A DNA stretch of 64,000 nt from NCBI GenBank assembly GCA_973895155.1, contig OZ316894.1, positions 19,846,451 through 19,910,450 on the forward strand. The letters run 5' to 3'. A program made the translations under genes and the position numbers. Shown here piece by piece: positions 2,154 through 64,000 of this stretch (the stretch's first letter is position 1; each line of letters opens with the position of its first letter). Under the pieces are notes generated by a model. That model searched no databases. It was not told the DNA's origin and worked only from the letters and a program-made list of their open reading frames with translations. This DNA comes from Marsupella aquatica. Taxonomy: Eukaryota > Plantae > Marchantiophyta.

Positions 2154-4699
2154 ATGGCGACTAGCTTTGCAGTGTCCAGCAAGTGTGGGATGAGTTTATC
2201 ATCAGCTTTCCACGGAACAGGGATCTCGAGCTCTTTGAGCTTGGACACTGACGTGCGGGCTTTCAATGTGCAGCCCAGCCATGGAAGCAAGAGGCGCGGG
2301 CACAGGGCTGTTGTGCTGTGCAAGGCTGGCCCAGACGTCAGGCCTGTGATCATTGGACTGGCTGCCGATTCAGGATGTGGCAAGAGTACCTTCATGAGAC
2401 GGTTGACGAGTGTGTTCGGTGGAGCTGCGAGCCCTCCGAGGGGCGGAAACCCCGATTCCAACACTCTCATTAGTGATACCACTACTGTCATCTGCTTGGA
2501 TGATTATCATTCACTGGACAGGTATGGCAGGAAGGAGAAGGCCGTTACAGCTTTGGACCCGCGCGCCAACAATTTCGATCTCATGTACGAGCAAGTGAAG
2601 GCTATCAAGGAGGGAAAGTCTATTGAGAAGCCCATCTACAATCATGTCACTGGACTCCTCGACCCTGCGGAAACTATTGCTGCACCCAAGATCTTCGTGA
2701 TCGAAGGACTGCATCCCATGTGAGTCTTCTCACTTCCCTTGCTATTCCGTCCTCCCTCCTGGTTAATTCACTCGGGAACATCACTATTAGGCGGGAGAGG
2801 TGGACTGAATCACTGGCGCCATGAAGGCAATGAGGTAGCTATGAACTCACACAGAAGGCTGGCCGAGGCCACGAAGTTCCTGGTTGCCTGTCGAAAATGG
2901 ATTAACGTACTCCCACTGGTCTGCACCTGTAGATTTCAGCCGAAGATGCACCCTCCCTCCTCATCTTATAAATGCCGAGGTAGTATGTCAACCATTAAGT
3001 GTAGAGTCGAGCTGAAACTTCCTGGTTGAATTTTACACGTCCTCTACCTCCAAGAGAGAATTATCCACAACTCCGCCTGTTGTTTTCGTCTTGGACTGAT
3101 CGAGTAAATCAGTGAAATTGTGGAACGAATGCCTGGTGGTGAATTTATGATTGTGATGTTTTCCACTTGAATACCTCGATAAGTGAAATCGATACCTGGG
3201 AAATTATTGTTAATTACACCTATCAATAAGAAAGTTTAGTTAAGTTTATCTTTCAGACGTGGAATTCTGAGTGCCGGTGTTGTCACTTGGGACAAAATAT
3301 GCATTCACTGTGGTGAGACGGGAAAATTCTTCAATGTGGGTTTTGATATCGGCAGAGTTACATGTTCGTGGCTTGTGTAACGGAGTTCGCGGGACGTTTA
3401 CGCCGCCGCCCGCAGCTTTAGAAATGTGAAATTCTTATCATTCTCTTGGCTCCACTTTGACATTGTTGTAGGTTTGACGAGCGGGTGAGGGATCTCCTGG
3501 ACTTCAGCATCTACCTAGACATCAGTGACGATGTCAAGTTTGCATGGAAGATTCAGGTAATTTCCTCTGTTTCTACCCGTGCTGTCTATGTGGATTCTGT
3601 ATGCGCCGTATTTTTTTAGTAAAGAAGACTCTGCATTGGATCGGTCTATTGGAGCAGTGTCGGTGCTCGTATGAGAAGACGAATTTCTGGCAGCATGTTT
3701 TCTCAGTGTGGTGGCAGCCCTTGTCCGAGAAGTCGTATCCTGATTCCCTTGGATGGTAGATTGCGTGTCGCTAATGTATAATGTAGGCGTAAGTAGTTCA
3801 CTTCCATCAGTATTGTGAATAGTGGCCTGTGTCTGTTGTGTATGTGACAGCGCGACATGGCTGAGCGAGGACACAGCTTGGAGAGTATTAAGGCTAGCAT
3901 TGCTGCACGCAAGCCGGACTTCGATGCTTTTATTGGTAATTTCTTCCTCGACCACTTTCTGATAAACTCTGTATCCAACCACTTCATAGACACTCGATCG
4001 TTTCTCTCGTCATCAGTATGAGCTTGTCTGCTGACCTTTAAAACAACTTCTGCTCGCAGATCCCCAGAAGCAGCACGCTGATATTGTAATCCAAGTGCTG
4101 CCCACCCAGCTCATTCCCGATGACAACGAGGGCAAGATCTTGAGGGTCAAGATGATCATGAAGGAGGGAGTGTCCGACTTCGAGCCGGTCCATCTGTTCG
4201 ATGAAGGCTCCACCATTACCTGGATCCCTTGCGGCAGAAAGTTGACCTGCTCGTATCCCGGAATCACGTTTACCTATGGTCCAGACACCTACTACGGACA
4301 TGAGGTACATTGTGACGGGGCGAGTTGGGCAAATTTGAACCGTCAGCCCTGGTCTCAGGTTCCGTGCTCTATTTGTGATTAATGGGAATTGAAGTATTGG
4401 CATTCAGTCGTTTTGTAGTTATTGATACCAGATGCATTCAATTTGTACAGGTTTCCGTTCTCGAAATGGACGGTCAATTCGACAAACTGGACGAGCTGAT
4501 TTATGTGGAGAGTCATTTGAGCAACATTTCGACTAAGTTCTACGGAGAGATCACCCAACAGATGTTGAAACACGCTGACTTCCCCGGTAGCAACAACGGA
4601 ACAGGATTGTTCCAAACCATCGTAGGTCTCAAAATTAGGGAGGTGTTTGAGAAAATTGTGGCAAGAGAGGCGGTGAAATTGGAATCAGCTAAGGCTTAA
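2154..4699 (+). CDS. PRK: Phosphoribulokinase, chloroplastic (5 exons: 2154-2719, 3472-3556, 3851-3935, 4060-4304, 4451-4699)
   Basis: A Ser-rich transit peptide is followed by IGLAADSGCGKSTFMRR (P-loop), ICLDDYHSLDR, EGLHPM|FDERVRDLLDFSIYLD, RDMAERGHSLESIKASI, DPQKQHAD and FPGSNNGTGLFQTIVGLKIRE. All four introns are GT-AG and the phases join in frame. Confidence 0.97.
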
Positions 4700-5663
4700 A
4701 TGATTGTAAAATTTGTAACTAGTTTGACTGCACTGCTAGTCATGTACAATAGAAGTTTTGCAAGCTCTGAAGATCGGTTTAGAGTCACCAGTTCTCTTCT
4801 CTATTCAATGTGGGGACAAAGCTGTGAGGAAGTGATGCACTCATGCTCTGAAGAAAAATTCATTCATAACCTGCCGACTGGCTTTGGCTTAGAAGCAAGC
4901 CAAATTGTATAACTTATGTCAACAGCCCGGCGCACATAATTATTGGCTTGAATGGTCATTTTATTGGCATTGATGAAGCTTTCTGGCAGCATGGAATTGT
5001 TGTAGCTCATGAGGGAGTAGCTGATTTTTTGGCCAGTTGCTCTCCAGATATTCCTGACGGAATGAAGGGAGATGCTATTGGGGATTTTTCTAGTCGTCAA
5101 ATACGACATACGGACAAGATTTTGGACCCACAATTCTGTAACTTTTTAACCATGGGATGAAAATTTTGAGTTTCGGATACACATGGTAGAAATTCTCAAA
5201 GAATTGACTGAACGGAATCCTCGCTTGTATATGACTCGTCCTGTGATGTCCGTGCCTCTAGTTTCTGTTTAGCCTCTTCTATGGAATGTTGAAGACTGCA
5301 AGACTGAAAGATGTCGGTATACAGTCAAAGATGTTCAAATACTTCATTGAAACTAACCCAAAAAAACTGGAAGTAATGAAGCTAAAGCCCAGATGGACAC
5401 AGACCTTTGACATGATGGCAGGTTGGAGTGACAAAACCATCATAGACATAAACGTGTCACAAAATTGAATATTACAGTTTAGGCGTACAGACATCTTTGA
5501 AACATCCGTGAAGGTTAGACCTCCGTCTATTACAGCTATGGTGCTAAGAGTCCAAGCTTTTCACTTGAAGACAGGTATCCCCCGTGGCTCAAGCTGGCTG
5601 TCCATTACAGAATTAATGCACAAGCCGCCCCATTGAAATATCTATCCGAAACAATCTCCACAG

Positions 5664-6045
5664 TTACAGTTTGTAGCCCAAGTATTCTGCGCGGGTTCCT
5701 CCCAGGTAGTCATCTGAATCATCCCTCGAGGATTCGATTGATAGAGCCAATTCTGCATCTGCGCGAGCTCCTTCCGTGTCATTTAACAAGAATTTGACAT
5801 AACCACGGTGCTTCAGCACTTCATAGTCAATGGTCTTTAGCTTTAAAGCTTCGTCCAAATCTTCCAGGGCGCCCCCCAGATCTCCTATTATTCGCTTCAA
5901 GACGCCCCTCTCCTGCAAGACAAAATGTCGGCATCCGTCAAGTTGAATGCCTCGTTGGCATCGTCCAGTGCCCCTTGAAAATCTCCTAGTTCTGCCTTTA
6001 CAAAAATTCTCGAACTGCCATCACAAATAGCACACTGAGTAATGC
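5664..6045 (-). pseudogene. TPR-repeat exon, copy 1 (frameshifted)
   Basis: Translates as KAELGDFQGALDDANEAF / QERGVLKRIIGDLGGALEDLDEAL / VLKHRGYVKFLLNDTEGARADAELAL, a TPR-type pattern. A net 4-bp loss near 5925 relative to copy 2 breaks the frame. Confidence 0.65.
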
Positions 6046-6628
6046 TGCCAAATAGATCACACGAGTGAGATCTAACAAGTTCCCTATTCTTTGCAACTTT
6101 GGCTCCCGCAACATTTCCACAATAGCTATGTTATTGATTCCAAGCAATGCGAAATGCGACTAGGCTTGGATGTTTCCAAATGTACCGTGCATCTGTTGCA
6201 TTTTCAATGATAAGATCTTTCCTATCTGGCTAGAAAGTTGGAATTTTCCTGTGCTTTGGAATGTATTCGTAGTTCTACTAGGTGAGAATCCGGTTAGCGA
6301 CCAAAATCAAAACTCAAATGAGGAAAAAAGAAAAGAGAAAAGAGAATATTCTGGAAATTCCGATTTCGTCAATTAGTTAGGCACCCAATAATCAGCATCA
6401 CCGATATCCGTATCAAACTGAGCATCTCAAATCCAGTTACGAAGCAGCTATGTCAGGACAGTGTCTTACTGTATAGATATTTAACTATTCTCAAGGACGT
6501 CAAATTGAATCTTCGCGTCCATACATCCATTGCCGTTAGCTTCATTAGTCACTACAAATCTATTTTATTTTGAGACGGTCCATTTCGTTGGATGATCAAC
6601 TGCTCTGCTTCTTTCTATGCGAATCTAT

Positions 6629-7304
6629 TCACACACAATAAAGGGCTGCGTCGATCGATATCAGTGATAACTTCACGTACCTTAAACTATCGGCATCAAG
6701 TTCTTGATCTCCCACCAAGTAGTAAGACCCTCCTCGATCTAGACTACGGTGGTCATTTTGTGACAAGTCATTCACCACACCAATGAGAGCACCCGCCTCT
6801 TTGGCGACTCTCAACTGCAAAGTATTGTCGGTCGAACTGGCAACATTTGCCAACGCCCGTGCTACTTCTTCTTGTAAACCACACTGGTCATTCAGAGCAT
6901 TATCGGATGAACAAGCAAGATGTGCCAATGCCAGTGCTGCTGTTTCTTGTAAATCACGGTCCTCATCCTGTGACAAGCAATTCACCAGGCCAACCAGAGC
7001 CCCCTGTGCATCGGCAACTCTCAACTTCAGAGCATTATCGGATGAACAAGCAAGATTTGCCAATGCCCGTGCTGCTGTTTTTTGTAAATCACGGTGCTCA
7101 TCCTGTGACAAGCAATTCACCAGGCCAACCAGAGCCCCCTGTGCATCGGCAACTCTCAGCTGCAGAGCATTATCGGTCGAATTTACAAGATTTGCCAATG
7201 CCCATGCTGCTTCTTCTTGTAAATCACGGTGCTCATCCTGTGAGAAGCAATTCACCAGGCCAACCAGAGCCCCCTGTGCATCGGCAACTCTCAACTTCAG
7301 AGCA
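6629..7304 (-). pseudogene. Out-of-frame 3' remainder of the copy-1 ARM array
   Basis: ORF 6629..7294 continues the same 45-aa repeats in another frame after a 62-bp deletion at about 7315. It contains one more shortened unit and a degraded capping region. Confidence 0.7.
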
Positions 7305-8880
7305 TTATCGGATGAACAAGCAATTCACCAGGCCAACCAGAGCCCGCTGTGCATCGGCAACTCTCAACTGCAGAGCATTATCGGATGAACCGGCAAGATT
7401 TGCCAATGCCCGTGCTGCTGTTTCTTGTAAATCACGGTGCTCATCCTGTGACAAGCAATTCGCCAGGCCAACCAGAGCCCCCTGTGCATCGGCAACTCTC
7501 AACTGCAGAGCATTATCGGATGAACCGGCAAGATTTGCCAATGCCCCTGCTGCTGTTTTTTGTAAATCACGGTGCTCATCCTGTGACAAGCAATTCACCA
7601 GGCCAACCAGAGCCCCCTGTGCATCGGCAACTCTCAACTTCAGAGCATTATCGGATAAACCGGCAAGATTTGCCAATGCCAGTGCTGCTGTTTTTTGTAA
7701 ATCACGGTGCTTATCCTGTGACAAGCAATTCACCAGGCCAACCAGAGCCCCCTCTGCATCGGCAACTCTCAACTGCAGAGCATTATCGGATGAACCGGCA
7801 AGATTTGCCAATGCCAGTGCTGCTGTTTTTTGTAAATCACGGTGCTCATCCTGTGACAAGCAATTCACCAGGCCAACCAGAGCCCCCTGTGCATCGGCAA
7901 CTCTCAACTTCAGAGCATTATCGGATAAACCGGCAAGATTTGCCAATGCCAGTGCTGCTGTTTTTTGTAAATCACGGTGCTTATCCTGTGACAAGCAATT
8001 CACCAGGCCAACCAGAGCCCCCTCTGCATCGGCAACTCTCAACTTCAGAGCATTATCGGATGAACCGGCAAGATTTGCCAATGCCCGTGCTGCTGTTTCT
8101 TGTAAATCACGGTGCTCATCCTGTGACAAGCAATTCACCAGGCCAACCAGAGCCCCCTCTGCATCGGCAACTCTCAACTTCAGAGCATTATCGGATGAAC
8201 CGGCAAGATTTGCCAATGCCCGTGCTGCTGTTTTTTGTAAATCACGGTGCTCATCCTGTGACAAGCAATTCACCAGGCCAACCAGAGCCCCCTGTGCATC
8301 GGCAACTCTCAACTTCAGAGCATTATCGGATGAACCGGCAAGATTTGCCAATGCCAGTGCTGCTGTTTTTTGTAAATCACGGTGCTTATCCTGTGACAAG
8401 CAATTCACCAGGCCAACCAGAGCCCCCTCTGCATCGGCAACTCTCAACTCCACAGCATTATCAGTCGAACCGGCAAGATTTGCCAATGCCCGTGCTGCTG
8501 TTTTTTGTAAATCACGGTGCTCATCCTGTGACAAGCAATTCACCAGGCCAACCAGAGCCCCCTGTGCATCGGCAACTCTCAACTGCAGAGCATTATCGGA
8601 TGAACCGGCAAGATTTGCCAATGCCCGTGCTGCTGTTTCTTGTAAATCACGGTGCTCATCCTGTGACAAGCAATTCACCAGGCCAACCAGAGCCCCCTCT
8701 GCATCGGCAACTCTCAACTTCAGAGCATTATCGGATGAACCGGCAAGATTTGCCAATGCCCCTGCTGCTGTTTTTTGTAAATCACGGTGCTCATCCTGTG
8801 ACAAGCAATTCACCAGGCCAACCAGAGCCCCTTTCTCATCGGCAAGTCTGAACGTTATAGGATCATCTCTCGCTGGTGCC
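6760..8880. repeat. 135-bp coding tandem repeat array, copy 1 (11 consecutive full units plus about 4 further full or partial units)
   Basis: The anchor 'caaccagagc' recurs every 135 bp from 7334 to 8819, and again at 7261, 7126 and 6991. Confidence 0.95.
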
Positions 8881-11800
8881 AAATTTGCCAAAGCGTGTGC
8901 CGCATTTCTTTGTAGGGTAGGCTTGGATTGCTGACACAAGCAATTCACAAGACTGGCGAGTAGGCCCTCTTTGTTGACAATTACTCGGTGAATCCGAATT
9001 TCTTTCGAGAATGCTAAGCCACTCAAGGCTAGAGCCGCATTTTCTGGAAATGCATCCGACTCCCAATCGGGGAGGGTGAGTGAGTGTAGTAGCACGTCCA
9101 AAACACCGGGAGTGTTTCCAACCAGGATTGCTGAGTTGTCATATGAAGCCTTCCAACACACAAGACACAATGTTTTGGAGGCCGCCTCTTGGACACTACT
9201 GGGGAAGCCCTCCTTCAAATTCAAAAGGTCAACTACAGTCTGCAAAAAGGTGATTGTATGTTCGTTGAGCAGAGGCGTATCTTCTATGGACGAAATGTGC
9301 ATAATAAACGCAAGGGTGGCCAACTGTACGGAAGGACAAGCACCCAAGTTCAGCAGGTAAGTGATGTTGTCGTTATCTAGCCGGCGGTTGCATATGAAGT
9401 TGAGAAGGACCTGTAATAAAAGAAAGGGAGTCACAATGCCGAGTAATTAAATTCAGTGACAATTATAGATCAGAACTGTCATATGATTGTTTTCTTTTGA
9501 AAATTAATTTCCTAAGGTAGAAAGAAGGCAGAAAATGTATCGAAGAGACAGCTTTCCGACTGCTCTAAAAATCATGCTTCTATTATAATACTCTCTCACA
9601 GTTTCGTATATAAAATGTAGCATGTACGTCTGGCTCTTTCACAATGTTTGTATACACCAAATGTCCACGTTCTACTAAGGAAATTCTGGAATTTGTAGCT
9701 GTTCCAGAAAAATGGTCAAATTGATTTTCGCAAGAGTTACCTACTTAGTACGAAGAATAGCTAGCTGAAGAATATATATGAAGTCTGACTCAGTCTGTCA
9801 CGCACTTGGTTCCATTATGAACTGCTGGATTCAGTGAAAGGAAGTACTAGAATTATTGAGATGATTCTCTTCAATCAGAAATGTTCCAGTCGACTTCAAG
9901 AGAACTAGTCGATTTATATTAATATTATAATTATACTATAGCGAGAGTAAAATGTAGAGGGAAGCACTTCTTCAAGGGCGGCAGGAGAAATACCTTTCTG
10001 ATACGGCACTTGTCCATTTCCGTCCATGGCTCCTCCTCTTCAGGCTTGTCCAAGAGCCATATCAATGGCTCGATAGCTTTCCTCCTTAGATCCTTCATGG
10101 TATCATCAGAATCTACAAGATTGGCTATTTTGGAAGCCTTTGCCATGGCACTAGTCACAACTGGATCCGTATGACAGCCATCAAAGTATAGAGCACAAAG
10201 AGTGATTCTCACTCTCATCTCGTCACTCTCCGGCACTATTTCTATTTCATTACCTACCAATTCCGATTCAGCAGCCTGCAACTTGCATCTGATGCTTGAC
10301 GTGATGCTTGACTCAGGTGAAAAACTGTCATCACCAGACAATGCCCCAATCACATCCCTAACTTCCTGTTTGCCCACAACATGCCGTTCCATATAAAGTT
10401 TCACCAGAGACTGTAGGGACCACGCGGGAGTGTCCTCCTCATTTTCTTCCTTGCCCACATTCATCTTGGATGCCAATGTATCAGCTTTACGCTTCAATAG
10501 TTCTCTCATCCATAATTCATCTGTTGACCTTGTGAATGAAGAGCTTGACATGTTCATACCAGCACAGAAAAGTCGAAGGACCTCTTCGGGAACAGATTCT
10601 GCTTTACATGCATACATCAAGAAGAGTATCCGTTTGGCATCCCTGGTTTCCAGAGATTCTAGACAAAGCGTCATAGCCCCCCAAAGGCTTCTAGGTGTAG
10701 CACTCTCATCGTCTAACACGATAGTTGTAGCTTTAGAGTCTAGTAACTCAGATAATTCCTTCCAAGCTTCTCGCCAAGCCCTTTTATTCTTCTTATCTGC
10801 CTTGTAGGAAAAGGTACTGGCCAAACAGGCCAGAGCTAAAGGATTTCCATCAGTTGCTTGGATCATTTTATCTGCATACTCCTGCATTGAGACAATTTAA
10901 GAAGAAACACGAATTTTTATACCAGTTAGTCGCTAAGGAGACAACTAAAAGAACAATTACTTCAATCACAAATATGCGACTACAATATAAGATTTGCTTT
11001 GAGGGCAACTGACCTGTATGTTGTCAGGAACTTTGTTACACTCCAGCCCCACAAGGGAGGCAAGGATGTTTCTCGCTTCCTCTTTGGAAGCTTCGTCCAT
11101 CTTAATAAGCACAGAGGCATCTTTAAAGTCTTCACATAAATTAGACCTCTGGGAAGTGATGAGAATCTTATCATCTTTGCCGTCTCTGGCAGCCTTCCAC
11201 ATTTCATATACAAACTGCTTATCGGAAACGCCATCTAAGATCATCAAAATCTTCTGGCCAGCAAAAACATTATGGAGAGCGTTGGCGATTCTAGATTTTG
11301 AGCCAATATTCTCCCCAGATTTTGACATGTTTTCCTCGGCTAAACTAGCGGGAGAAAGGTGTTCCAAGATTTCATACTGCTTGGTGGCAAGATTAGATAT
11401 GGAACTATTGCCACACGACACAAAAATCACATGATCAAACACGTTGCTTTTTTCTCCAAATTGCCCATAGCGCTCACAGATATATCTGGCTAGGGTGGAC
11501 TTGCCTTTACCTACGCCACCATGCAATAATATCATGCGAGCCCCGCTCTGAGAATCTTCGATTGCCTTAATGACGGCAGACTGTGATTTTTCTATCGGAA
11601 CGTACTTGTTGTCGTTATTGTGGATAACTGTAGCCATGGCTCTATTCCTGCCTACTTCTCGCATGAGACCATAGAATTGCACTTCCTCCTCGACGATTCT
11701 TGGGATGCTCTCAAGTTCTTGGATCACCATCTGAAATGTCTTTTCTAACCTTTCTGGGAAAAGTGTCAAGTTCACTTTCGCATAAATGCACCAGAATTGG

Positions 11801-12087
11801 GAACAGCACTGGTTGCCAGACACGTTTCTCTCCAACTTGTTTAATCTTGCTTCCGCCTTCTTCAACGCCAATTCGGCTTCCTCTAGTGTCTTCATCATTG
11901 TGCTCTCCACAGGTTGCTGATGGACGCGGACTTGCTCCTCATAGAAAACAAGTCTTGAGCTCAGTATCGCCGCTTTGCTTTGATACTCGGCTGACGCAGT
12001 GAACCAGTCTTCTTTGAAATTCTCAATCTTTGACACAATGTCAAGAATTGAACCGCATACAGTAACGACTTCCTTCACTGCGTCCAT
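7305..12087 (-). CDS. NLR-like STAND protein, copy 1: N-terminal helical domain + NB-ARC + Armadillo-repeat array (exons 12087-11014, 10881-9994, 9410-7305; about 1355 aa, ended by a frameshift)
   Basis: Motifs are P-loop LHGGVGKGKSTLA, Walker B ILMILDGV, RNBS-B KILITSQ, GLPL-like DGNPLALA and MHD-position WSLQSLV, followed by 45-aa ARM-type repeats (LVNCLSQ...LQxxAAxALANLA). Two phase-0 GT-AG introns sit at the same positions in all three copies. Confidence 0.8.
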
Positions 12088-22608: not shown

Positions 22609-22841
22609 TGACCTAAGAGACAGGTATTTTTTCGTCATTCAAGCTGTATCGGACAAATCACTATAAAGAGCCTCATGTATGCTAGGTGTGTACTAAAATA
22701 AGGTCTGTGACTACTTTCATCAATCCCATTACATCAACACATATGAATCATGAGCAAATGGTTTTTGTCATATAATTGCATGACCAGATTTTTCGGTCAA
22801 GCATTGAGGGATAGGCAACGTCGGGCACTGGTATGTCATCC

Positions 22842-28838: not shown

Positions 28839-29217
28839 TTACAGGGTGTAGCCCAAGTATTCTACGCGGGTTACTCCCAGGTAGCCATCTGAATCATCCC
28901 TTAACGATTCGATTGATAGAGCCCATTCTGCATCTGCGCGAGCTCCTTCCGTGTCATTTAACAAGAATTTGACATAACCACGGTGCTTCAGCATTTCATA
29001 GTGTCTTTAGGTTTAAAGCTTCGTCCAAATCTGCCAGGGCACCCCTTAGATCTCCCATTATGTGCTTCAAGACGCCCCTCTCCTGCAAGACAAACGCCCT
29101 GTCGGCATCCGTCAAGTTGAATGCCTCGTTGGCATCGTCCAGTGCCCCTTGAAAGTCTCCAAGTTCTGCCTTGACAAAAATTCTCCTACTGCCATCACAA
29201 ATAGCACACTGAGTATG
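28839..29217 (-). pseudogene. TPR-repeat exon, copy 2 (frameshifted)
   Basis: Homologous to 58718-59101, with a deletion near 29000 giving a premature TGA. Confidence 0.65.
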
Positions 29218-29794
29218 CTGCAAATAGATCACACGAGTTGGATCTAAACCAGTTCCCCTATTCTTTGCAACTTTGGCTACCGCCACATTTCCGCCACATT
29301 TCAAGAATAGCTATGTTATTGATCCAATGCAGTGCGAAATGCGACTAGGAGTGGATGTCTCCAAATGTACCGTACATTTGTTGCATTTCTTTTGATAGAT
29401 CCTTCCTATCTGGCTAGAAAGTTGGAATTTTCCTGTGCCTTGGAATGTATTATGGAACCTCCAGAGATTCTAGTAGGTGACGAACTGGTAAGCGACCAAC
29501 ATCAAAACTCAAATGAGGACAAATGAATAGAGAAATATCTGGAATCCTGTCATCATCATCACAGATTAGTTCCTATCCGACTGAGCTTCTCAATCCAGCT
29601 ACTAAACCGGCACCTATGACAGGACAGTGTCTTACGGTATAGATATTTAGCTTTTCTCAAGGACGTCAAATTGAATCTTGGCGTTTGTACATCCCTTGCC
29701 CTTAGCTTTACTAGTCCCTACAGACTTATTTTCTTTTGACACTGTCCATTTAGTTCGATGAACAACTTCTTTGGTTCGTTTTGAATATGGATGT

Positions 29795-30374
29795 TTCTCT
29801 GGTATGCAACTCCAATTTTTATAGGCAAGTTTTTCATTCATTACAATGGCCTTATATCCAATTGATCAACTTGGATTTCATTTTAGTCTACTAAAGTACT
29901 CCTTTTTTATAAGGTAAGTTTTTTAATTCTTTATAATGATTTTATATCCAATTGACCATTTTAGATTTCATTTTAGTTTCCAAAAGTCTTGTAGCTCTGA
30001 CCTCAAAGAATACAAAAATGTAACTTAAAAAAAACCAAGCTTGTTTTGATGTACAAAAAATAGATCAAAACAAAATTATATAGGTTTTTTTTAATAAAAG
30101 GGTTTACGCCAAACAAGCTAGCTTTTTAGAATTTTTATTAAAAATTTTAATTTTTTTTAATAAAAATTATAACATGTATAGGAATATATTTTAATTTCAT
30201 ATGAAAAAAAGAAGAAAACCAAATTTTTTATGACTTGAAAATTTTTAAAAGTGGAAAATTTAAGTTTTTTCAAATTTTAATTATTTTGTATAGTCAATTT
30301 TTTAATCCATATAAAAATGTAAACCCGTTCTTTGTAGAGCCTTGTCTATTATATAAAAATTGCATACCGGGGAG
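29795..30374. mobile_element. AT-rich MITE-like insertion
   Basis: A very AT-rich block of about 580 bp that is absent at the equivalent site of copy 3 (about 59672). Imperfect inverted termini: ctctggtatgcaa ... ttgcataccgggag. Confidence 0.55.
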
Positions 30375-33300
30375 CTTTATATTTACACAATAAAGAGTTG
30401 TGGCGGATAAATAGAAGTGATAAATTCACATACCTTAATGTATAGGCATCAAGTTGTCTCGACAGCAAGCCTACTCGCTTAGCTATGGTCGGGTCTATCT
30501 TAAACAATGCTTGCGCTGCTGCATATAGAATATCCGGATGCACGTCATCTCCCACCAAGCTTGTAAGCCCTTCCAATAGACCTTCCGTTCTTCTGAGGAT
30601 CACTTTTGCCTCTGAAGATCGAGCTAGATTTAATGCCATTCTTGCTGCCTCCCTTTCCAAATCAAGGTTGTCACTTTTTGACAAACAATTCACCAGACCA
30701 ACCAGAAAACCCTTCTCACTCGTGACTCTCAGCTTCAGAGTATTATCCGTTGAACCCGCAAGATTTGCCAACGCCCGTGCTGCTTGTTTTTGTAAATCAC
30801 GGTGCTCATCCTGTGACAAGCAATTCACCAGGCCACCCAGAGACCCCTCCGCATCGGCAACTCTCAACTTCAGAGCATTATCGGATGAACCGGCAAGATT
30901 TGCCAACGCCGATGCTGCTTGTTTTTGTAAACCGTGGTGCTCATCCTGTGACAAGCAATTCGCCAGGCCAACCAGAGCCCCCTCCGCATCGGCAACTCTC
31001 AACTTCAGAGCATTATCGGATTGACCGGCAAGATTTGCCAACGCCCGTGCTGCCTGTCTTTGTAAATCACGGTGGTCATTTTGTGACAAACAATTCACCA
31101 GGCCAACCAGAGCCCCCTCCGCATCGGCAACTCTCAACTTCGGAGCATTATCCGATGAACAGGCAAGATTTGTCAACACCCATGCTGCTTGTTCTTGTAA
31201 ATCACGATGCTCATCCTGTGACAAGCAATTCACCAGGCCAACCAGAGCCCCCTCCGCATCGGCAACTCTCAACTTCAGAGTATCGGAGTGACAAGCAAGA
31301 GTTCCCAACGCCCGTGCTGCCTGGCCTTGTAAATCACGGTGGTCATTTTGTGACAAGCAATTCACCAGGCCAACCAGAGCCTCCGCATTGGCAACTCTCA
31401 AGTTCAGAGCATTATCGGATGAACGGGCAAGATTTGCTAACGCCCCTGCTGCTTGTTCTTGTAAATCACGGTGGTCATTTTGTGACAAATAGTTCGCCAG
31501 GCCAACCAGACCCCCTCCGCATTGGCAACTCTTAGCACAAGAGCATTATCGGTCGAACTAGCAAGATTTGCCAACGCCCCTGCTGCTACTTCTTGTGAAT
31601 CAGGGTTCTCATCCTGTGACAAGCAATTCACCAGGCCAACCAGAGCCCCTTTCTCATTGGCGAGCCTGAACAATAGAGCATCATCGCCCGTAGATGCAAG
31701 ATTTGCCAAAGCGTGTGCCGCGTAAAGTTGTAGGGTAGGCTTGGATTGCTGACACAAGCAATTCACAAGACTGGTGAGTAGGCCCTCCTTGTTGACAATT
31801 ACTCGTTGAATCTGAATTTCTTGCGAGAATGCTAAGCCACTCAATGAATTAGCCGCATTTTCTGCAAATGCATCCGATTCCCAATCGGGGAGGGTGAGTG
31901 AGTGTAGTAGCACGTCCAAAACACCCGAAGTGTTTCCAACCAGGATTGCTGAGTTGTCATATGAAGCCTTCCAACAAACAAGACACAATGTTTTGGAGGC
32001 CGCCTCTTGGACACTACTCTGGAAACCCTCCTTTAAATTCAAAAGGTCAACTACAGTCTGCAGAAAGGTGACTGTATGTTCGTTGAGCAGTGGCGTATCT
32101 TCTATGGACGAAATGTGCATAATAAACGCGAGGGTGGCCAACTGTACGGAAGGACAAGCACCGCAGGTAAGTGATGTTGTCGTTATCTAGGCGGCAGTTG
32201 CATATGAAGTTGAGAAGGACCTGTAATAAAAGAAAGGGAATCACAATGCCGAGGAATTAAATTCAATGACAATTATAGATCAGAACTGTCATATGATTGT
32301 TTTCTTTTGAAAATTAATTCCCTCAAATAGAAAGAAGGCAGAGAAAACGTATCGAAGAGACAGCTTTCGGACTACTCTAAAAATCATGCTTTTATTAAGA
32401 CTCTCGTACAGTTTCGTATATAAAATGTAGCATGTACGTCTGGCTATTTAACAATATTTGTATACACAAGACGCCCAGGTTCTACTAAGGAAATCAAACG
32501 CCTGAATTTCATTGAAAAAGTCGAATTTGTATCTTTTCCAGAATGATAATGGTCATATTGATTTCCGCAAGAGTTACCTACTTCGTACGAAGAATAGCTG
32601 AAGAATACATATGAAGTCTGACTCAATCTGTCACGCACTTGGGTCCATTATGAACATGTGAACTGCTAGATTCTGTGAGAGGAAGTACTAGAATTATTGA
32701 CATGATTCTCTTCAATCAGAAATGTTCCAGTCGACTTCAAGAGATCTCTAGAACTACTCGATTTATATTAATATTATACTGTAGAGAGAGTAACATTTAG
32801 AGGGAAGCACATCTTCAAGGGTGGCAGGAGAAATACCTTTCTGACACGCCACTTGTCCATTTCCGTCCATTGCCCCTCCTCTTCAGACTTGTCCAAGAGC
32901 CATATCAATGGCTCGATAGCTTTCCTCCTTAGATCCTTTATGGTATCATCAGAATCTACAAGATTGGCTATTTCGGAAGCCTTTGTCATGGCCCGCCTCA
33001 CAACTGGATCTGTGTGACAGCCATCAAAGTATAGAGCGCAAAGAGTGATTCTCACTCTCACTCTCACCTCGTCACTCTCTACTATTTCTATTTCATTACC
33101 TACTAATTCCGTTTCAGGAGCCTGATGCTTGATGTGATGCTTGACCCAGGTGAAAAACTGTCATCACCAAACAATGCCCCAATCACATCCCTGACTTCCT
33201 GTTTGCCCACTACATGCCGTTCCATATAAAGTTTCACCAGAGACTGTAGGGACCACGCGGGAGTGTCCTCCTCATTTTCTTCCTTGCCCACATTCATCTT

Positions 33301-34930
33301 GGATGCCAATGTATCAGCTTTACGCTTCAATAGTTCTCTCATCCATAATTCATCTGTTGACCTTGTGAATGAAGAGCCTGACATGTTCTTCATACCAGCA
33401 CAAAAAAGTCGAAGAACCTCTTCGGGAACAGATTCTGCTTTACATGCATACATCAAGAAGAGTATCCGCTTGGCATCCCTGGTTTCGAGAGATTCTAGAC
33501 AAAGCTTCATAGCCCCCCACAGGCTTCTAGGTGTAGCAGTCTCATCGTCTAACACGATAGTCGTAGCTTTAGAGTCTAGTAACTCAGATAATTCCTTCCA
33601 AGCATCTCGCCAAGCCCTTTTATTCTTCTTATCTGCCTTGTAGGAAAAGGTACTGGCCAAACAGGCCAAAGCTAAAGGATTTCCATCAGTTGCTTGGATC
33701 ATTTTATCTGCATACTCCTGCATTGAGACAATTTAAGAAGAAACACGATTTTTTATACCAGTTAGTCGCTAAGGAGAGTGACGACTAAAAGAACAATTAC
33801 GTCAATCACAAATAATTATGCGACTACAATATAAGATTTGCTTTGAGGGCAACTGACCTGTATGTTGTCAGGAAATTTGTTACTCTCCAGCCCCACAAGG
33901 GAGGCAAGGATGTTTCTCGCTTCCTCTTTGGAAGCTTCGTCCATCGTAATAAGCACAGAGGCATCTTTAAAGTCTTCACATAAATTAGACCTCTGGGAAG
34001 TGATGAGAATCTTATCATCTTTGCCGTCTCTGGCAGCCTTCCACATTTCATACACAAACTGCTTATCGGAAACGCCATCTAGGATCATCAAAATCTTCTG
34101 GCCAGCAAAAACATTGTGGAGAGCGTTGGCGATTCTAGATTTTGAGCCAACATTCTCCCCAGATTTTGACATGTTTTCCACGGCTAAACTAGCGGGAGAA
34201 AGGTGCTCCAAGATTTCATACTGCTTGGTGGCAAGATTAGATATGGAACTATTGCCACACGACACAAATAGTACATGATCAAACACGTTGCTTTTTTCTC
34301 CAAATTGCCCATAGCGCTCACAGATATATCTGGCTAGGGTGGACTTGCCTTTACCTACGCCACCATGTAATAATATCATGCGAGCCCCGCTCTGAGAATC
34401 TTCAATTGCGTTAATGACCGCAGACTGTGTCTTTTCTATCGGAACGTACTTGTTACTGTTATTGTGGATAACTGTAGGCATGGCTCGATTCTTGCCTTCT
34501 TCTCGCATGAGACCAGAGAATTCCCCTTCGTCCTTGATTTTTTTGAGATACTTTCAAGGTCTTGGATTACCATCTGAAATGTCTTTTCTAACTTTTCTGG
34601 GAAGAGTGTCAAGTTCACTTTCGCATAAAACCACCAGAATTGGGAACAGCACTGGTTATCGTCCACGCTTTTCTCCAACTTTTTTAATCTTGCTTCTGCC
34701 CTCTTCAGTGCCAATTCGGCTTTCTTTAATGTCTTCATCATAGTGCTCTCCACAGGTTGCTGATGGATGCGGACTTGCTTCTCATAGAAAGAAAGCTTTG
34801 ACCGGAGTATCGTCGCTTCACTTTGATACTCGACTGACACAGTGAACCAGTCTTCTTTGAAATTCTCAATCTTTGACACAATGTCACGAATTGAACCGCA
34901 TACAGTAACGACTTCCTTCACTGCGTCCAT
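30349..34930 (-). pseudogene. NLR-like NB-ARC-ARM gene, copy 2 (exons 34930-33858, 33717-32837, 32220-about 30434), multiply frameshifted
   Basis: Same motifs and introns as copy 1. Frame disruptions occur at about 34540, about 33110, about 32162 (short deletion) and about 31510 (1-bp deletion). It retains the C-terminal capping repeats. Confidence 0.85.
30680..31720. repeat. 135-bp ARM tandem array, copy 2 (about 7 units, two shortened by 3 bp)
   Basis: 'caattcaccaggccaaccagag' recurs at about 135-bp spacing. Confidence 0.9.
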
Positions 34931-58717: not shown

Positions 58718-59101
58718 TTACAGTTTGTAGCCCAAGTACTCTACACGGGTTCCTCCCAGGTAGCCATCTGAATCATCCCTTAAGGATTCGATTGATAGAG
58801 CCCATTCTGCATCTGCGCAAGCTCCTTCCGTGTCATTTAACAAGAATTTGACATAACCACGGTGCTTCAGCACTTCATAGTCATTGGTGTCTAGGTTGAA
58901 AGCTTCGTCCAAATCTGCCAGGGCACCCCTTAGATCACCCATTATGTGCTTCAAGACGCCCCTCTCCTGCAAGATAAACGGACGCGGGGCAACCGTCATG
59001 TTGAATGCGTCGTTGGCATCGTCCAGTGCCCCTTGAAAGTCTCCAAGTTCTGCCTTGACAAAAATTCTCGAGCTGCCATCACAAATAGCACACTGAGTAT
59101 G
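58718..59101 (-). CDS. TPR-repeat exon, copy 3 (open frame, about 127 aa, about 3 TPR motifs)
   Basis: An uninterrupted frame HTQC...KAELGDFQGALDDANDAF...QERGVLKHIMGDLRGALADLDEAF...VLKHRGYVKFLL...GYKL* is preceded by an acceptor-like 'ctatttgcag'. Upstream exons are not resolved. Confidence 0.55.
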   Translation of the reverse strand, partial: HTQCAICDGSSRIFVKAELGDFQGALDDANDAFNMTVAPRPFILQERGVLKHIMGDLRGALADLDEAFNLDTNDYEVLKHRGYVKFLLNDTEGACADAEWALSIESLRDDSDGYLGGTRVEYLGYKL

Positions 59102-59959
59102 CTGCAAATAGATCAAACGAGTTGGATCTAAACCAGTTCCCCTATTCTTTGCAACTTTGGCTACCGCCACATTTCAAGAATAGCTATGTTATTGATCCAA
59201 TGCAGTGCGAAATGCGACTAGGATTGGATGTCTCAAAATGTACCGTACATTTGTTGCATTTCTAATGATAAGATCCTTTCTATCTGGCTAGAAAGTTGGA
59301 ATTTTCCTGTGCCTTGGAATGTATTATGGAACCTCCAGTCATTCTAGTAGCTGAGAAACTGCTAAGCGACCAACATCAAAACTCAAACGAGGAAAAATGA
59401 AAAGAGAAATATCTGGAATCCAGTCATCATCATCACAGATTAGTCCCTATCCGTCGACTGAGCTTCTCAATCCAGCTACTAAACTGGCACCTATGACAGA
59501 ACAATGTCTTGTTGTATAGATATTTAGCTTTTCCCAAGCACGTCAAATTCAATCTTGCATTGGCGTTTGTACATCCATTGCCCTTAGCTTCACTAGTCCC
59601 TAAGACTTATTTTCTTTTGACACTGTCCACGTCGTTGGATTGATCAACTTCTTTGCTTTCTTCTGAATATGGACATTTATATTTACACAATAAAGAGTTG
59701 CATCGGATCAATAGAAGAGATAAATTCACATACCTTAATGTATAGGCATGAAGTTGCCTTGACAACAAGCCTACTCGCTTAGCTAGTGTGGGGTCTATCT
59801 TAAACTTACAACGCTTCCACTGCTGCATATAGAGTATCCGGAAGCACGTCATCTCCCACCGAGCTTGTAAGCCCCTCCAAAACACCTTCCGTTCTTTTGC
59901 GGATCACTTTTGCCTCTGAAGCTTGAGCTAAATTTGATGCCATTCTTGCTGCCACTCTT

Positions 59960-61310
59960 TCCAAATCAAGGTTGTCATTTTGTGACAAGCAATTCACCAG
60001 ACCAACCAGAAAACCCTTCTCATTGGGGACTCACTCTCAACTTCAGAGTATTATCAGTTGAATCGGCAAGATATGCCAACACCTGTGCTGCTTGTTGTAG
60101 TAAACCATTGTGGTCCTTCTGTGAAAAGCAATTCACGAGGCCAACCAGAGCCCCCTCGGCATTTGCGATTGTAAACTGCACAGCATTATCCGTCGAAGCG
60201 GCAAGATTTGCCAACGCCCGTGATGCTACTTCTTGTAAACCATGGTGGTCATTCTGTGACAAGCAATTTACTAGGCCAACCAGAGCCCCCTCCGCATTGG
60301 CGATGCTCAACTCCACACCATTATCCGTCGAAGTTGCAAGATTTGCCAACGCAAGTGCTACATTTTCTTGTAAACCACGGTGGTCATTCTGTGACAAGCA
60401 ATTCACGAGGCCAACTAGAGCCCCCTCCGCATTTGCGATTCTCAACTTCGGAGCATTATCCGTCGACGAGGCAAGATTTGCCAACGCCCGTGCTGCTACT
60501 TCTTGTAAACCATAGTGGTCATTCTGGGACAAGCAATTTACAAGGCCAACCAGAGCCCCCTCCACATTGGCGACTCTCAACATCAGAGTATTATCCATTG
60601 TACAGGCAAGATTTGCCAATGCCCGTGCTGCTTCTTCTTGTAAACCATGGTGGTCATTGTGTGTCAAGCAATTCACGAGGCCAACCAGAGCCCCCTCCGC
60701 ATTGGCGATGCTCAACTCCACACCATTATCCGTCGAAGTTGCAAGATTTGCCAACGCCCCTGCTGCTGCTTCTTGTAAACCACGGTGGTCATTCTGTGAC
60801 AAGCAATTCACCAGGCCAACCAGAGCCCCCTCCGCATTGGCAATGCTCAACTGCACAACATTATCCGTCGAAGCTGCAAGATTTGCCAACGCCGGTGCTA
60901 CATTTTTTTGTAAACCACGGTGGTCATTCTGTGACAAGCAATTCACGAGTCCAACCAGAGCCCCCTCCGCATTTGCGATTCTCAACTTCGGAGCATTATC
61001 CGTCGACGAGGCAAGATTTGCCAACGCCCGTGCTGCTACTTCTTGTAAACCATAGTGGTCATTCTGGGACAAACAATTTACCAGCCCAACCAGAGCCCCC
61101 TCCACATTGGTGATGCTCAACTTCAGAGCACTATTTGACGAAGCTGCAAGGTTAGCCAACGCCCCTGCTGCTACTTCTTGTAAATCACGGTGTCCATTCT
61201 GTGACAAGCAATTCACGAGGCCAACCAGAGCCCCTTTCTCATTGGCGAGCCTGAACTTTAGAGCATCATCGCGCGCAGATGCAAGATTTGCCAAAGCGTG
61301 TGCCGCATTT
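59960..61310. repeat. 135-bp ARM tandem array, copy 3 (9 core units)
   Basis: 'ggccaaccagagccccc' recurs at 135-bp spacing, with 45-aa periodicity in ORF 60020..61837. Confidence 0.95.
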
Positions 61311-64000
61311 CTTTGTAGGGTAGGCTTGGATTGCTGACACAAGCATTTCACAAGACTGGCGAGTAGGCCCTCTTTGTTGACAACTACTCGTTGAATCTGA
61401 ATTTCTTTCGAAAATGCTAAGCCACTCAATGCTTTAGCCGCATTTTCTGCAAATGCATCCGACTCCCAATCGGTGAGGGTGAGTGAGTGTTGTAGCACGT
61501 CCACAACACCCGAAGTATTTCCAACTAGGATTGCTGAGTTGTCATATGAAGCCTTCCAACAAACACGACACAATGTTTTGGAGGCCGCCTCTTGGACACT
61601 ACTCTGGAAACCCTCCTTCAAATTCAAAAGGTCAACTACAGTCTGCAAAAAGGTGATTGTATGTTCGTTGAGCAAAGGCGTATCTTCTATGGAAGAAATG
61701 TGCAAAATAACCGCGAGAGTGGCCAACTGTACGGAAGGACAAGCACCCAACTTCAGCAGGTAAGTGATGTTGTCGTTATCTAGCCGGCGGTTGCATATGA
61801 AGTTGAGAAGGACCTGTAATAAAAGAAAGGGAGTCACAATGCCGAGTATTTAAATTCAATGACAATTGTAGATCAGAACTGTCAGATGACTGTTTTCTTT
61901 TGAAAATTATTCCCTCAAAGAGAAAGAAGGCAGAAAACGTATCGAAAGGCCAGCTTTCCGACTGCTCTAAAAATCATGCTTCTATTATAAGACTCTCTCA
62001 CAGTTTCGTATATAAAATGTAGCATGCACGTCTGGCTATTTAACAATAATTGTATACACCAAACGTCCACATTCTACTAAGGAAATCAAACGCCTGAATT
62101 TCATTGAAAAAGTCGAATTTGTATCTTTTCCACATAATGGTCATATTGATTTTCGCAAGAGTTACCTACTTCGTACGAAGAATAGCTGAAGAATATGTAT
62201 GAAGTCTGACTCAATCTGTCACGCACTTGGTTCCATTATGAACATGTGAACTGCTAGATTCTGTGAGAGGAAGTACTAGAGTTATTGAGATGATTCTCGT
62301 CAATCAGAAATGTTCCAGTCGACTTCAAGAGAACTAGTCGATTTATATTAATATTATACTATAGAGAGAGTAACATGTAGAGGGAAGCACTTCTTCATGG
62401 ACGGCAGGAGAAATACCTTTCTGACACGGCACTTGTCCAGTTCCGTCCATTGCTCCTCCTCTTCAGGCTTGTCCAGGAGCCATATCAATGGCTCGATAGC
62501 TTTCCTCCTTAGATCCTTCATGGTGTCATCAGAATCTACAAGGTTGGCTATTTCGGAAGCCTTTGCCATGGCCCGACTCACAACTGGATCTGTGTGACAG
62601 CCATCAAAGTATAGAGCGCAAAGAGTGATTCTCACTCTCATCTCGTCATCCACTATTTCTATTTCATTACCTACTAATTCCGATTCAGGAGCCTGCAACC
62701 TGCATCTGATGCTTGATGTGATGCTTGACTCAGGTGAAAAACTATCATCACCAAACAATGCCCCAATCACATCCCTGACTTCCTGTTTGCCCACGACATG
62801 CCGTTCCATATAAAGTTTCACCAGAGACTGTAGGGACCACGCCGGAGAGTCCTCCTCGTTTTCTTCCTTGCCCACATTCATCTTGGATGCCAATGTATCA
62901 GCTTTACGCTTCAATAGTTCTCTCATCCATAATTCATCTGTTGACCTTGTGAATGAAGAGCTTGACATGTTCATACCAGCACAAAAAAGTCGAAGGACCT
63001 CTTCGGGAACAGATTCTGCTTTACATGCATACATCAAGAAGAGTATCCGTTTGGCATCCCTGGTTTCCAGAGATTCTAGACAAAGCGTCATAGCCCCCCA
63101 CAAGCTTCTAGGTGTAGCACTCTCATCGTCTAACACGATAGTCGTAGCTTTAGAGTCTAGTAACTCAGATAATTCCTTCCAAGCATCTCGCCAAGCCCTT
63201 TTATTCTTCTTATCTGCCTTGTAGGAAAAGGTACTGGCCAAACAGGCCAAAGCTAAAGGATTTCCATCAGTTGCTTGGATCATCTTATCTGCATAATCCT
63301 GCATTGAGACAATTTAAGAAGAAACACCAATTCTTGGAGCTGTTAGTAGCTAAGGAGGCAACTTAGAGAGCAATTACTTTACAAATATGCTACTACAATA
63401 TAAGATTTGCTTTGAGGGCAACGCACCTGTATGTTCTCCGGAAATTTGTTACTCTCCAGCCCCACAAGGGAGGCAAGGATGTTTCTCGCTTCCTCTTTGG
63501 ACGCTTCGTCCATCGTAATAAGCACAGAGGCATCTTTAAAGTCTTCACATAAATTAGACCTCTGGGAAGTGATGAGAATCTTATCATCTTTGCCGTTTCT
63601 GGCAGCCTTCCACATTTCATACACAAACTGCTTATCGGAAACGCCATCTAGGATCATCAAAATCTTCTGGCCAGTAAAAACATTATGGAGAGCGTTGGCG
63701 ATTCTAGATTTTGAGCCAATATTCTCCCCAGATTTTGACATGTTTTCCTCGGCTAAACTAGCGGGAGAAAGGTGCTCCAAGATTTCATACTGCTTGGTGG
63801 CAAGATTAGATATGGAACTATTGCCACACGACACAAAAATTACATGATCAAACACGTTGCTTTTTTCTCCAAATTGCCCATAGCGCTCACAGATATATCT
63901 GGCTAGGGTGGACTTGCCTTTACCTACGCCCCCATGCAATAATATCATGCGAGCCCCGCTCTGAGAATCTTCAATTGCCTTAATGACGGCAGACTGTGAT
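60020..64000 (-). CDS. NLR-like NB-ARC-ARM gene, copy 3 (5' end outside window; exons >64000-63427, 63298-62417, 61813-60020)
   Basis: Same NB-ARC motifs and introns as copy 1. The frame is open through 9 core ARM units, then a 4-bp 'actc' duplication at about 60030 puts the capping repeats (59734-60020) out of frame. Confidence 0.75.

Follow-up and report, generated by a model that had tools for sequence, protein, structure and literature searches.

Homogenized armadillo arrays, variable at predicted peptide-binding positions, in a frameshifted NB-ARC gene cluster of a liverwort

Can an NLR-like plant receptor carry, in place of LRRs, an array of near-identical units that recombination re-deals, in the manner of the fungal receptors HET-E and HET-D? 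The question is raised by a 64-kb stretch of liverwort DNA (the window), whose minus strand harbors three tandem genes (copy 1, copy 2, and copy 3). As the original prediction had it, the three are paralogs: over alignments of 4-5 kb, copy 1 shares 90.8% DNA identity with copy 2 and 89.5% with copy 3. Our answer, to which we assign a probability of about 0.6, is that these are frameshifted tandem copies of an NB-ARC family whose arrays are homogenized per gene and vary at predicted peptide-binding positions, and whose intact members would be immune sensors.

The copies share one layout, in which a helical N-terminal region is followed by NB-ARC, an ARM array, a cap, and TPR (Table 1). Pfam profiles recover NB-ARC (PF00931, E 5.6e-13) and armadillo repeats (PF00514, E 8.4e-49), and no LRR family matches any exon of the three copies, which give ARM and TPR instead; the NLR-like layout with ARM replacing LRR stands. 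The gene extends past 6629, the end first assigned to it: beyond a GT-AG intron (6680-6015) lies a fourth exon, encoding TPR (6014-5664), which is found in all three copies and had been overlooked; in copy 1 its product matches the C-terminal end of Calypogeia P0001 at 67-70%. Between copies, the non-repeat coding regions have dN/dS values of 0.20-0.42 (0.20 for exon 2 of copy 1 against copy 3). The cluster is interspersed with retroelements and duplicated blocks, and no partner gene is evident within the 64-kb window.

Table 1. Position and content of the three gene copies and their parts in the window.
Feature	Position	Strand	Content
Copy 1 exon 1	11014..12087	-	Predicted four-helix bundle (aa 2-147) and NB-ARC nucleotide-binding subdomain, P-loop intact
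Copy 1 exon 2	9994..10881	-	Remainder of NB-ARC (GLPL-like motif, no recognizable MHD) and helical linker
Copy 1 exon 3	6681..9410	-	Divergent ARM repeats, then homogenized array
Copy 1 core array	7350..8834	-	Mean identity 96.8% over 11 armadillo units of 135 bp (45 aa), all in frame
Copy 1 truncated unit	7277..7349	-	73 bp; 62-bp deletion at 8-bp microhomology (7316-7323)
Copy 1 out-of-frame array tail	6740..7276	-	3 units, followed by a degenerate one
Copy 1 exon 4	5664..6014	-	TPR module; 4-bp deletion near 5925
Copy 2, pseudogene	28839..34930	-	Four exons as in copy 1; 7 array units (31652-30715)
Copy 3	58718..64000	-	5' end outside window; open through 9 array units (61237-60023)
Copy 3 TPR exon	59072-58718	-	Intact

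The NB-ARC has an intact P-loop (GxxxxGKST). Its model lies nearest to NRC2, a wheat resistosome, Apaf-1, and ZAR1 (Z 16-17.4; for NRC2, Z 17.4 and rmsd 2.7 over 183 residues), and Foldseek matches it to Sr35 at E 2.5e-8. With PF00931 above cut-off, the structural match to NRC2 bears out the fold that had been proposed. The second Asp of Walker B is replaced by Gly in the window copies: copies 1 and 2 read LDG (copy 3 is read from an opposite-strand frame), where Calypogeia relatives have LDD. The likely MHD position is LQS, MHD does not occur in the close clade, and the His is retained in some distant members. Neither the two acidic Walker B residues nor the MHD of a canonical plant NLR is found here. 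An atlas search with the NB-ARC of P0018 returns general NB-ARC/nSTAND clusters only. In the copy 1 model, residues 2-147 form four long helices, in agreement with the helical N-terminal domain expected; this domain has no Pfam match at E 0.1, and its atlas similarity of 0.90 to RPW8, MLKL_N, and MCAfunc clusters provides leads only.

The arrays had been described as almost identical 135-bp units, about 15, 7, and 9 in number. TRF recovers them, and the counts hold: in copy 1, 11 full units are followed by the 73-bp stub, another 3 units, and one degenerate unit, against 7 units in copy 2 and 9 in copy 3, so that unit number differs among the paralogs. Near identity is a property of copy 1 (mean 96.8% DNA identity, range 93-100%, for the 11 core units; 95.6% for 13 units) and does not extend to copy 2 (87.5%, 4 clean units) or copy 3 (84.3%, 8 units, with some pairs down to 74%). 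Judged on mean DNA identity, repeats within a gene are nonetheless 80-100% identical, as in HET-E-type genes. Homogenization is confined to the gene, as claimed: copy 1 units lie 0-5 bases from their nearest sibling (one exception at 12) and at least 11 bases from any unit of copies 2 and 3. Within the window, copy 1 has no identical unit in common with copy 2 or copy 3, the nearest pairs being 11 and 18 differences apart. Copy 1 units are mosaic, with four gametes in 5/15 codon pairs (the two commonest residues at 6 codons), to which recurrent mutation could contribute; on 5 strictly biallelic bases, the four-gamete test gives 0/10 incompatible pairs.

The ARM array is predicted to form a regular armadillo solenoid (pLDDT 92; TM 0.80 to a designed armadillo protein). 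Designed consensus armadillo proteins are its best PDB matches, whether ranked by sequence or by fold, and it resembles importin-alpha and Vac8 in both respects. Alignment on ALWALSNIA places the Trp (Trp33 equivalent) at codon 25 of the unit and the Asn at codon 29; in the copy 1 core array, codon 25 encodes G, R, or L. Positions 36, 40, and 41 are taken by us to be groove positions. In armadillo proteins, Trp33, Glu30, and the Asn bind peptide (PMC4756613), and positions 29, 30, and 33 make up selected pockets (PMC11228518). Seven groove positions vary beyond random sets in 7/7 arrays tested (p about 0.0002-0.015), both in the window (copy 1, 0.010; copy 2, 0.015; copy 3, 0.014) and in relatives (P0001, 0.001; P0002, 0.003; P0058, 0.008; Marchantia paleacea P0032, 0.00015); the arrays of copies 1-3, P0001, and P0002 are mutually related, the variation at codon 25 was spotted before the groove set was fixed, and the arrays of P0003, P0004, P0005, P0056, and P0072 lie outside the test. 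Positions 29, 30, and 33 alone exceed other polar positions in 5/5 arrays (p 0.002-0.049). P0032 is built of a unit with another sequence, and its five columns of highest variability are 41, 33, 40, 36, and 30. The W33 equivalent is invariant in P0058, and codons 1, 15, and 39 of copy 1, outside the groove set, are likewise variable. Hypervariable positions, as in HET-E, are present here too, concentrated in helix 3 at sites that grip peptides in importin-alpha and designed armadillo proteins. Pairwise pN/pS at groove and remaining sites is 0.153/0.055 and 0.029/0.026 in copy 1, 0.255/0.107 and 0.088/0.163 in copy 2, and 0.299/0.224 and 0.115/0.195 in copy 3; these values are non-independent and do not amount to a formal selection test, and surface positions also drift more freely. 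The selection reading leans on pairwise and column statistics.

None of the three window copies (0/3) has an intact full-length frame. In copy 1 the 62-bp deletion shifts the frame inside the array of exon 3 and brings in a stop at 7305, which ends an open frame of 1356 aa; most of the C-terminal cap is deleted as well, and the TPR exon has its own 4-bp deletion. Copy 2, with five frameshifts (near 34542, 33124, 32162, 31518, and 29002, the first in the N-terminal domain), is certainly a dead gene. Copy 3 has two 4-bp insertions 3' of the array (near 60036 and 59809). With three broken copies, the cluster itself is not demonstrated as a working receptor locus.

The named NB-ARC-ARM relatives found are all from liverworts (Calypogeia, Marchantia, Riccia). 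Homogenized arrays (self-identity at least 70%) occur in 9/25 long family members, with periods of 43-46, 88-91, and 129-135 aa; the other 16/25 are not homogenized. In a quick tree, the homogenized members fall on three or more separate branches; this tree contains no RLS1 sequence, omits the LRR-bearing NB-ARC proteins P0062, P0083, P0087, P0089, and P0097, and keeps two long-branch outgroups. Similar arrays occur in the open-frame relatives P0001, P0002, P0032, and P0058, and Calypogeia P0003, P0004, and P0005 have their annotated end just past the array, without TPR.

In Table S3 of PMC12512272, the CC-NB-ARM cluster with RLS1 takes in 11 genes of Marchantia paleacea and 5 of M. polymorpha, and six of those Marchantia rows have the layout (NBARC)(ARM)(TPR). 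Mapa_000187, 002451, 010673, and 011269 seem to equal four rows of this cluster, matched by gene order numbers and Pfam profiles. The window family very likely belongs to this cluster, whose layout (helical or CC N-terminus, NB-ARC, ARM) it shares, with helices taken from the model and domains from Pfam. Sequence searches did not retrieve RLS1 or Selaginella NB-ARM sequences; most were word-limited, so non-retrieval is no evidence of non-relationship. The original prediction allowed that an earlier description of this architecture would count against it. It is already tabulated as CC-NB-ARM, including NB-ARC-ARM-TPR for Marchantia (PMC12512272), and that objection therefore largely applies. 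For homogenized armadillo arrays on an NLR, no description was found in the literature searched; the main text of the Plant Cell NLR survey PMC11218826 has zero occurrences of ARM, TPR, or Calypogeia, and the literature examined yields no ligand, activity, or phenotype for liverwort members. Rice RLS1 (LOC_Os02g10900) has a role in cell death and resistance (PMC10030324). Like the window family, the RLS1 cluster, which has fern, lycophyte, and Marchantia members, combines a helical N-terminus with NB-ARC and has ARM for LRR. RLS1 has three ARM motifs and is the only rice row seen in the cluster table, whereas the liverwort family is expanded and tandem, with 7-15 homogenized units and variable groove residues.

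HET-E and HET-D (HNWD) are fungal NLRs of high internal conservation, with repeats 80-100% identical and few hypervariable positions (PMC13449251). Frequent pseudogenes are common to these fungal NLRs (PMC13449251) and the window family, as gain, loss, and shuffling of units would be. However, the fungal systems combine NACHT or NB-ARC with WD40, ANK, or TPR rather than armadillo, and HNWD genes share identical units, whereas the window paralogs share none (closest, 11 differences). The cross-kingdom survey PMC13449251 took in ANK, TPR, WD40, and LRR and left out armadillo. Near-identical repeats had been called a fungal hallmark; the likeness to HET-E holds, but rice Xa1/Xo1 and flax L and M are plant NLRs with near-identical sensor repeats of variable number (PMC7004385). 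These are canonical NLRs with LRR units of 93 or ~150 aa, in contrast to the 45-aa armadillo units of the window. Importin-alpha and designed armadillo proteins share the fold and the conserved Asn with the window array (PMC4756613, PMC11228518), and the natural variation of the window arrays sits where engineers alter the specificity of designed proteins. Their units are 42 aa long against 45 in the window, so that curvature and peptide register may differ. Unlike in these proteins, the window solenoid is joined to an NB-ARC switch, and peptide binding by it is a prediction.

The best reading, drawn from these parallels, is that the family comprises HET-E-like variable sensor NLRs with a modular, putatively peptide-reading groove, the window copies being young casualties. 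Unequal crossing-over would re-deal the specificity of intact members. If the array binds as importin-alpha and designed armadillo proteins do, the backbone of an extended peptide would be held by the near-invariant Asn, and positions 29, 30, and 33 (and 36, 40, and 41) would read its side chains, ~2 residues per repeat. As in plant NLR biology, ligand binding may free the NB-ARC for oligomerization, and the four-helix bundle of the oligomer may then trigger cell death or defense. The misalignment that shuffles units would also break genes, the copy 1 frameshift being a partial-unit deletion at microhomology. The idea of a plant analogue of HET-E thus survives for homogenized, mosaic, and hypervariable units, and is weakened by the broken window copies and the architecture already tabulated.

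Under neutral turnover, the arrays would have expanded recently by unequal crossing-over in genes on their way to losing function, and the variable sites would be no more than exposed, weakly constrained residues. Frameshifts in all three copies, the retroelements and duplicated blocks that interleave the cluster, and a pN close to pS at the non-groove sites of copy 1 all fit, and this is probably true of copy 2 itself. As an account of the family it is unlikely, in view of the similar arrays in open-frame P0001, P0002, P0032, and P0058, a groove more variable than other polar positions in 5/5 arrays, the repetition of the pattern in a Marchantia array of different unit, and the non-repeat dN/dS of 0.20-0.42.

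Less probable again is a decoy or guard, in which the array mimics host armadillo proteins such as importin-alpha, traps effectors, and signals via a partner. Likeness of the array to importin-alpha and Vac8 in sequence and fold is in its favor; a need for a partner would suit the worn Walker B and MHD motifs of the degenerate NB-ARC. Under such a scheme, copies 1 and 3 could work as truncated proteins without cap and TPR, as the retained 1356-aa frame of copy 1 and the annotated ends of P0003, P0004, and P0005 would allow. However, a mimic of a conserved host surface is expected to retain Trp33, which varies here, and the window has no evident partner gene. Moreover, copies 1 and 3 have their stops 5' of the final intron, a usual trigger of transcript decay.

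Leafy liverworts harbor fungal endophytes, but the sensing of self or symbionts rather than pathogens (allorecognition between adjacent haploid plants, or endophyte vetting, in the way of HET-E in Podospora) is the least probable reading, as we know of no allorecognition system in liverworts, nothing in the sequence names a ligand, and RLS1 is linked to cell death and disease resistance. In its favor, the system nearest in mechanism, which combines near-identical repeats and few hypervariable residues, serves allorecognition (PMC13449251).

Returning to the HET-E-like sensor, a bolder version is conceivable, though we advance it tentatively: a programmable peptide reader may have evolved several times in one liverwort NLR-like family, from near-identical armadillo modules that recombination reorders and that are coupled to a cell-death switch. 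Each module would read ~2 residues via three to six variable groove positions. If so, liverworts would have in nature the equivalent of engineered modular armadillo binders, and the correspondence of repeats to residues could be decoded, much as for TAL effectors or PPR proteins. CC-NB-ARM proteins have so far been regarded as a conserved offshoot of the plant NLRs; those of liverworts appear to be an expanded, fast-shuffling sensor class, with the HET-E strategy placed on a repeat type outside the cross-kingdom survey. Since armadillo-peptide recognition is structurally well understood, the variable positions yield direct, testable ligand predictions, and the Marchantia members make these testable in a genetic model. 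Variable armadillo units could also be a natural source of specificity modules in the engineering of binders or receptors.

Contigs of four sequencing runs (X1-X4) bear on the assembly. Those of X1 (to 6920) and X4 reproduce the deletions in 6225-6976 exactly. At site 5925, X3 agrees with the window but X1, X2, and X4 do not, a comparison confounded by paralogs. The copy 1 frameshift junction is carried by one X1 contig (7294-7376) with zero differences and at single-copy depth, its left side of 22 letters being below the 31-letter bridging rule. It is absent from the listed pieces of X2 (8/40), X3 (57%), and X4 (7/7), although X4 carries 6225-6976 unchanged; as contigs prove presence and never absence, this at most hints at a polymorphic break. 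Repeat-word depth is several-fold higher in X2 and X4, which are under another organism label, than in X1, and in these short-read contigs longer arrays and more paralogs are indistinguishable by such depth. Three repeat words have 5, 8, and 7 occurrences in the window; in X1, which may be the source sample, their unitig depths are 5.0, 7.9, and 8.1 times the single-copy depth (14), so that array length is no obvious assembly artefact.

The NLR-like family in the window consists of three minus-strand paralogs sharing 89-91% DNA identity with one another across 4-5 kb of alignment, in agreement with the original prediction of three copies with an NB-ARC and 135-bp arrays. Exon 1 matches the NB-ARC profile (PF00931, E 5.6e-13) and exon 3 the armadillo (ARM) profile (PF00514, E 8.4e-49). 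The gene is split into four exons, and all three copies keep its GT-AG introns; the original prediction overlooked the fourth exon, whose product is a TPR module with a 67-70% match to the C-terminus of P0001, a Calypogeia homologue. In the exon-1 model (pLDDT 85), aa 2-147 form four long helices, and a P-loop fold comes next. The model scores best against plant NLRs and apoptosome proteins, chiefly via the NB domain (NRC2, Z 17.4; Sr35, Foldseek E 2.5e-8), in keeping with the proposed NB-ARC fold. The N-terminal domain has no match in Pfam, and its Atlas likeness to RPW8 and MLKL_N (0.90) is lead-level. Of the NB-ARC motifs, the P-loop is preserved and Walker B carries Gly in place of its second Asp; the close clade lacks an MHD motif. 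The ARM model (pLDDT 92) resembles designed armadillo proteins (TM 0.80) as well as importin-alpha and Vac8.

Features of the NB-ARC-ARM cluster and its surroundings
Feature	Position	Strand	Remark
Copy 1 start	12087	minus	
Copy 2 start	34930	minus	
Copy 3 start	beyond 64000	minus	outside window
Copy 1 array	6891-8853		135-bp period, TRF
Copy 2 array	30679-31649		135-bp period, TRF
Copy 3 array	59963-61294		135-bp period, TRF
Phosphoribulokinase-like gene	2150-4700	plus	presumed identity
Decayed 3' pieces of this gene	22842-23629, 25453-26298, 54957-55737		
LINE-type element	35549-40847	minus	frameshifted; endonuclease and reverse transcriptase matches
Copia-type retrotransposon	43154-47018	minus	in several frames
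Ty3/gypsy-like retrotransposon	20308-22638	minus	in several frames
Duplicated intergenic block	16155-20408 / 50510-54740		96-97% identity
Duplicated intergenic block	22600-25075 / 54716-57197		96-97% identity
7-bp repeat, four copies	51165-51194		internal site, TRF

The arrays are a real feature of the window. They comprise about 15, 7 and 9 units in copies 1, 2 and 3, as originally counted; the description of the units as almost identical holds for copy 1 (96.8%, 11 core units) and fails for copies 2 (87.5%, 4 clean units) and 3 (84.3%, 8 units). In X1, a sequencing run possibly from the source sample, three repeat words reach 5.0, 7.9 and 8.1 times single-copy depth and occur 5, 8 and 7 times in the window, so that the array is no obvious assembly artefact. 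Word depth several-fold above X1 in runs X2 and X4, labelled as another organism, hints at copy-number variation that the contigs cannot resolve. Copy-1 units are mosaic, with four gametes in 5 of 15 codon pairs and, at strictly biallelic bases, in none of 10 pairs. The copy 3 array contains a four-unit offset duplication.

The new and testable point is that variation appears to be repeatedly concentrated on the armadillo peptide groove. Our groove set comprises seven helix-3 positions (29, 30, 33, 36, 40, 41 and the conserved Asn), of which we take 36, 40 and 41 to be peptide-groove positions. By alignment, codon 25 of the unit corresponds to Trp33 and codon 29 to the conserved Asn of helix 3. 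Peptide contacts described in two sources involve this Asn, Glu30, Trp33 and position 29 (PMC4756613, PMC11228518). In copy 1, codon 25 encodes G, R, L or W and its third base does not change; in five arrays its variability ranks 1, 1, 6, 3 and 2 of 45. The groove set varies more than random sets in all 7 arrays tested (p 0.00015-0.015). The Marchantia array, one of the 7, has columns 41, 33, 40, 36 and 30 as its five most variable; in one Calypogeia array position 33 is fixed and the groove set is still more variable. In each of five arrays compared, positions 29, 30 and 33 are more variable than the remaining polar positions (p 0.002-0.049). In pairwise comparisons, all three copies have pN above pS at groove positions; outside the groove, pN falls short of pS in copies 2 and 3 and roughly equals it in copy 1. 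None of these pairwise and column statistics amounts to a formal test of selection; five of the arrays are related to one another, and codon 25 had been noticed before the set was chosen.

The reading frame is disrupted in every copy. Copy 1 carries a 62-bp deletion within the array, flanked by two 8-bp microhomologies, and its frame ends at 1356 aa; most of the C-cap is missing and the TPR exon is short of 4 bp. The deletion junction is unchanged in one X1 contig at single-copy depth, its short side of 22 letters falling below the bridging rule. Copy 2 has five frameshifts, and copy 3 two 4-bp insertions 3' of the array. Because dN/dS is 0.20-0.42 in non-repeat coding regions (four comparisons), the breaks are probably recent. 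Neutral decay is an unlikely account of the family.

We favor, at a probability of about 0.6, a role of the intact members as sensor NLRs, whose binding, activation and output we infer. An extended peptide would be bound in the ARM groove, releasing the NB-ARC, which would then drive oligomerization and signaling by the four-helix bundle. Unequal crossing-over would homogenize the scaffold while reordering the variable pockets, and may occasionally destroy a copy, as in the window. A decoy or partner-dependent sensor is slightly less probable than neutral decay, and allorecognition or symbiont vetting is the least probable of these alternatives.

An exhaustive homologue search gave 63 matches; 18 of the 20 looked up are named proteins from liverworts (Calypogeia, Marchantia paleacea, Riccia) and one is from Acacia. 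M. polymorpha MpNBS-LRR15 falls in one matched cluster. Judged by these matches, the window itself most likely derives from a leafy liverwort. With exon 1 as query, the five long matches are all NB-ARC-ARM proteins of Calypogeia fissa (1456-1551 aa, 39-63% identity). Arrays with self-identity of at least 70% occur in 9 of 25 long family members, with differing unit sequences and periods, and fall on three or more branches of a quick tree built from the NB-ARC, which suggests that homogenization arose repeatedly. In homologues P0003 and P0004 the homogenized element is a higher-order block of three units (135 aa) and two units (89 aa), respectively. The N-termini of P0002, P0048, P0058 and P0060 are longer and different, so N-terminal domains seem to have been swapped within the family; that of P0048 matches an alpha/beta hydrolase, and P0002 is similar by eye.

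The NB-ARC-ARM architecture had been described before, and none of the local copies is intact. Rice RLS1, cited in the original prediction, is indeed described as NB-ARC-ARM (PMC10030324), as are Selaginella proteins (PMC8559963, PMC7145615). In the consulted part of Table S3 of PMC12512272, a CC-NB-ARM cluster unites RLS1 with fern, lycophyte, at least 11 M. paleacea and at least 5 M. polymorpha genes; at least 6 Marchantia rows are NB-ARC-ARM-TPR, and four M. paleacea homologues appear to be among its entries, judging from their Pfam profiles and gene order numbers. Near-identical repeats are likewise known in Xa1/Xo1 and flax L/M (PMC7004385) and, across kingdoms, in ANK, TPR, WD40 and LRR (PMC13449251, where "armadillo" does not occur in the text consulted). 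For homogenized, groove-variable armadillo arrays on NLRs, no description was found in a limited search of the openly accessible literature.

At 96-97% identity, the duplicated intergenic blocks postdate the duplication of the genes (89-91%), a sign that the cluster underwent rearrangement or conversion at a later time. Copy 1 and a gene that we take, from its motifs, to be phosphoribulokinase-like are arranged tail to tail; decayed 3' pieces of the latter recur, so the duplicated block took in part of this housekeeping gene. The LINE-type element is inserted upstream of copy 2, and the copy-1 alignment is interrupted around it. The internal 7-bp repeat is presumably a plant telomere-like motif.
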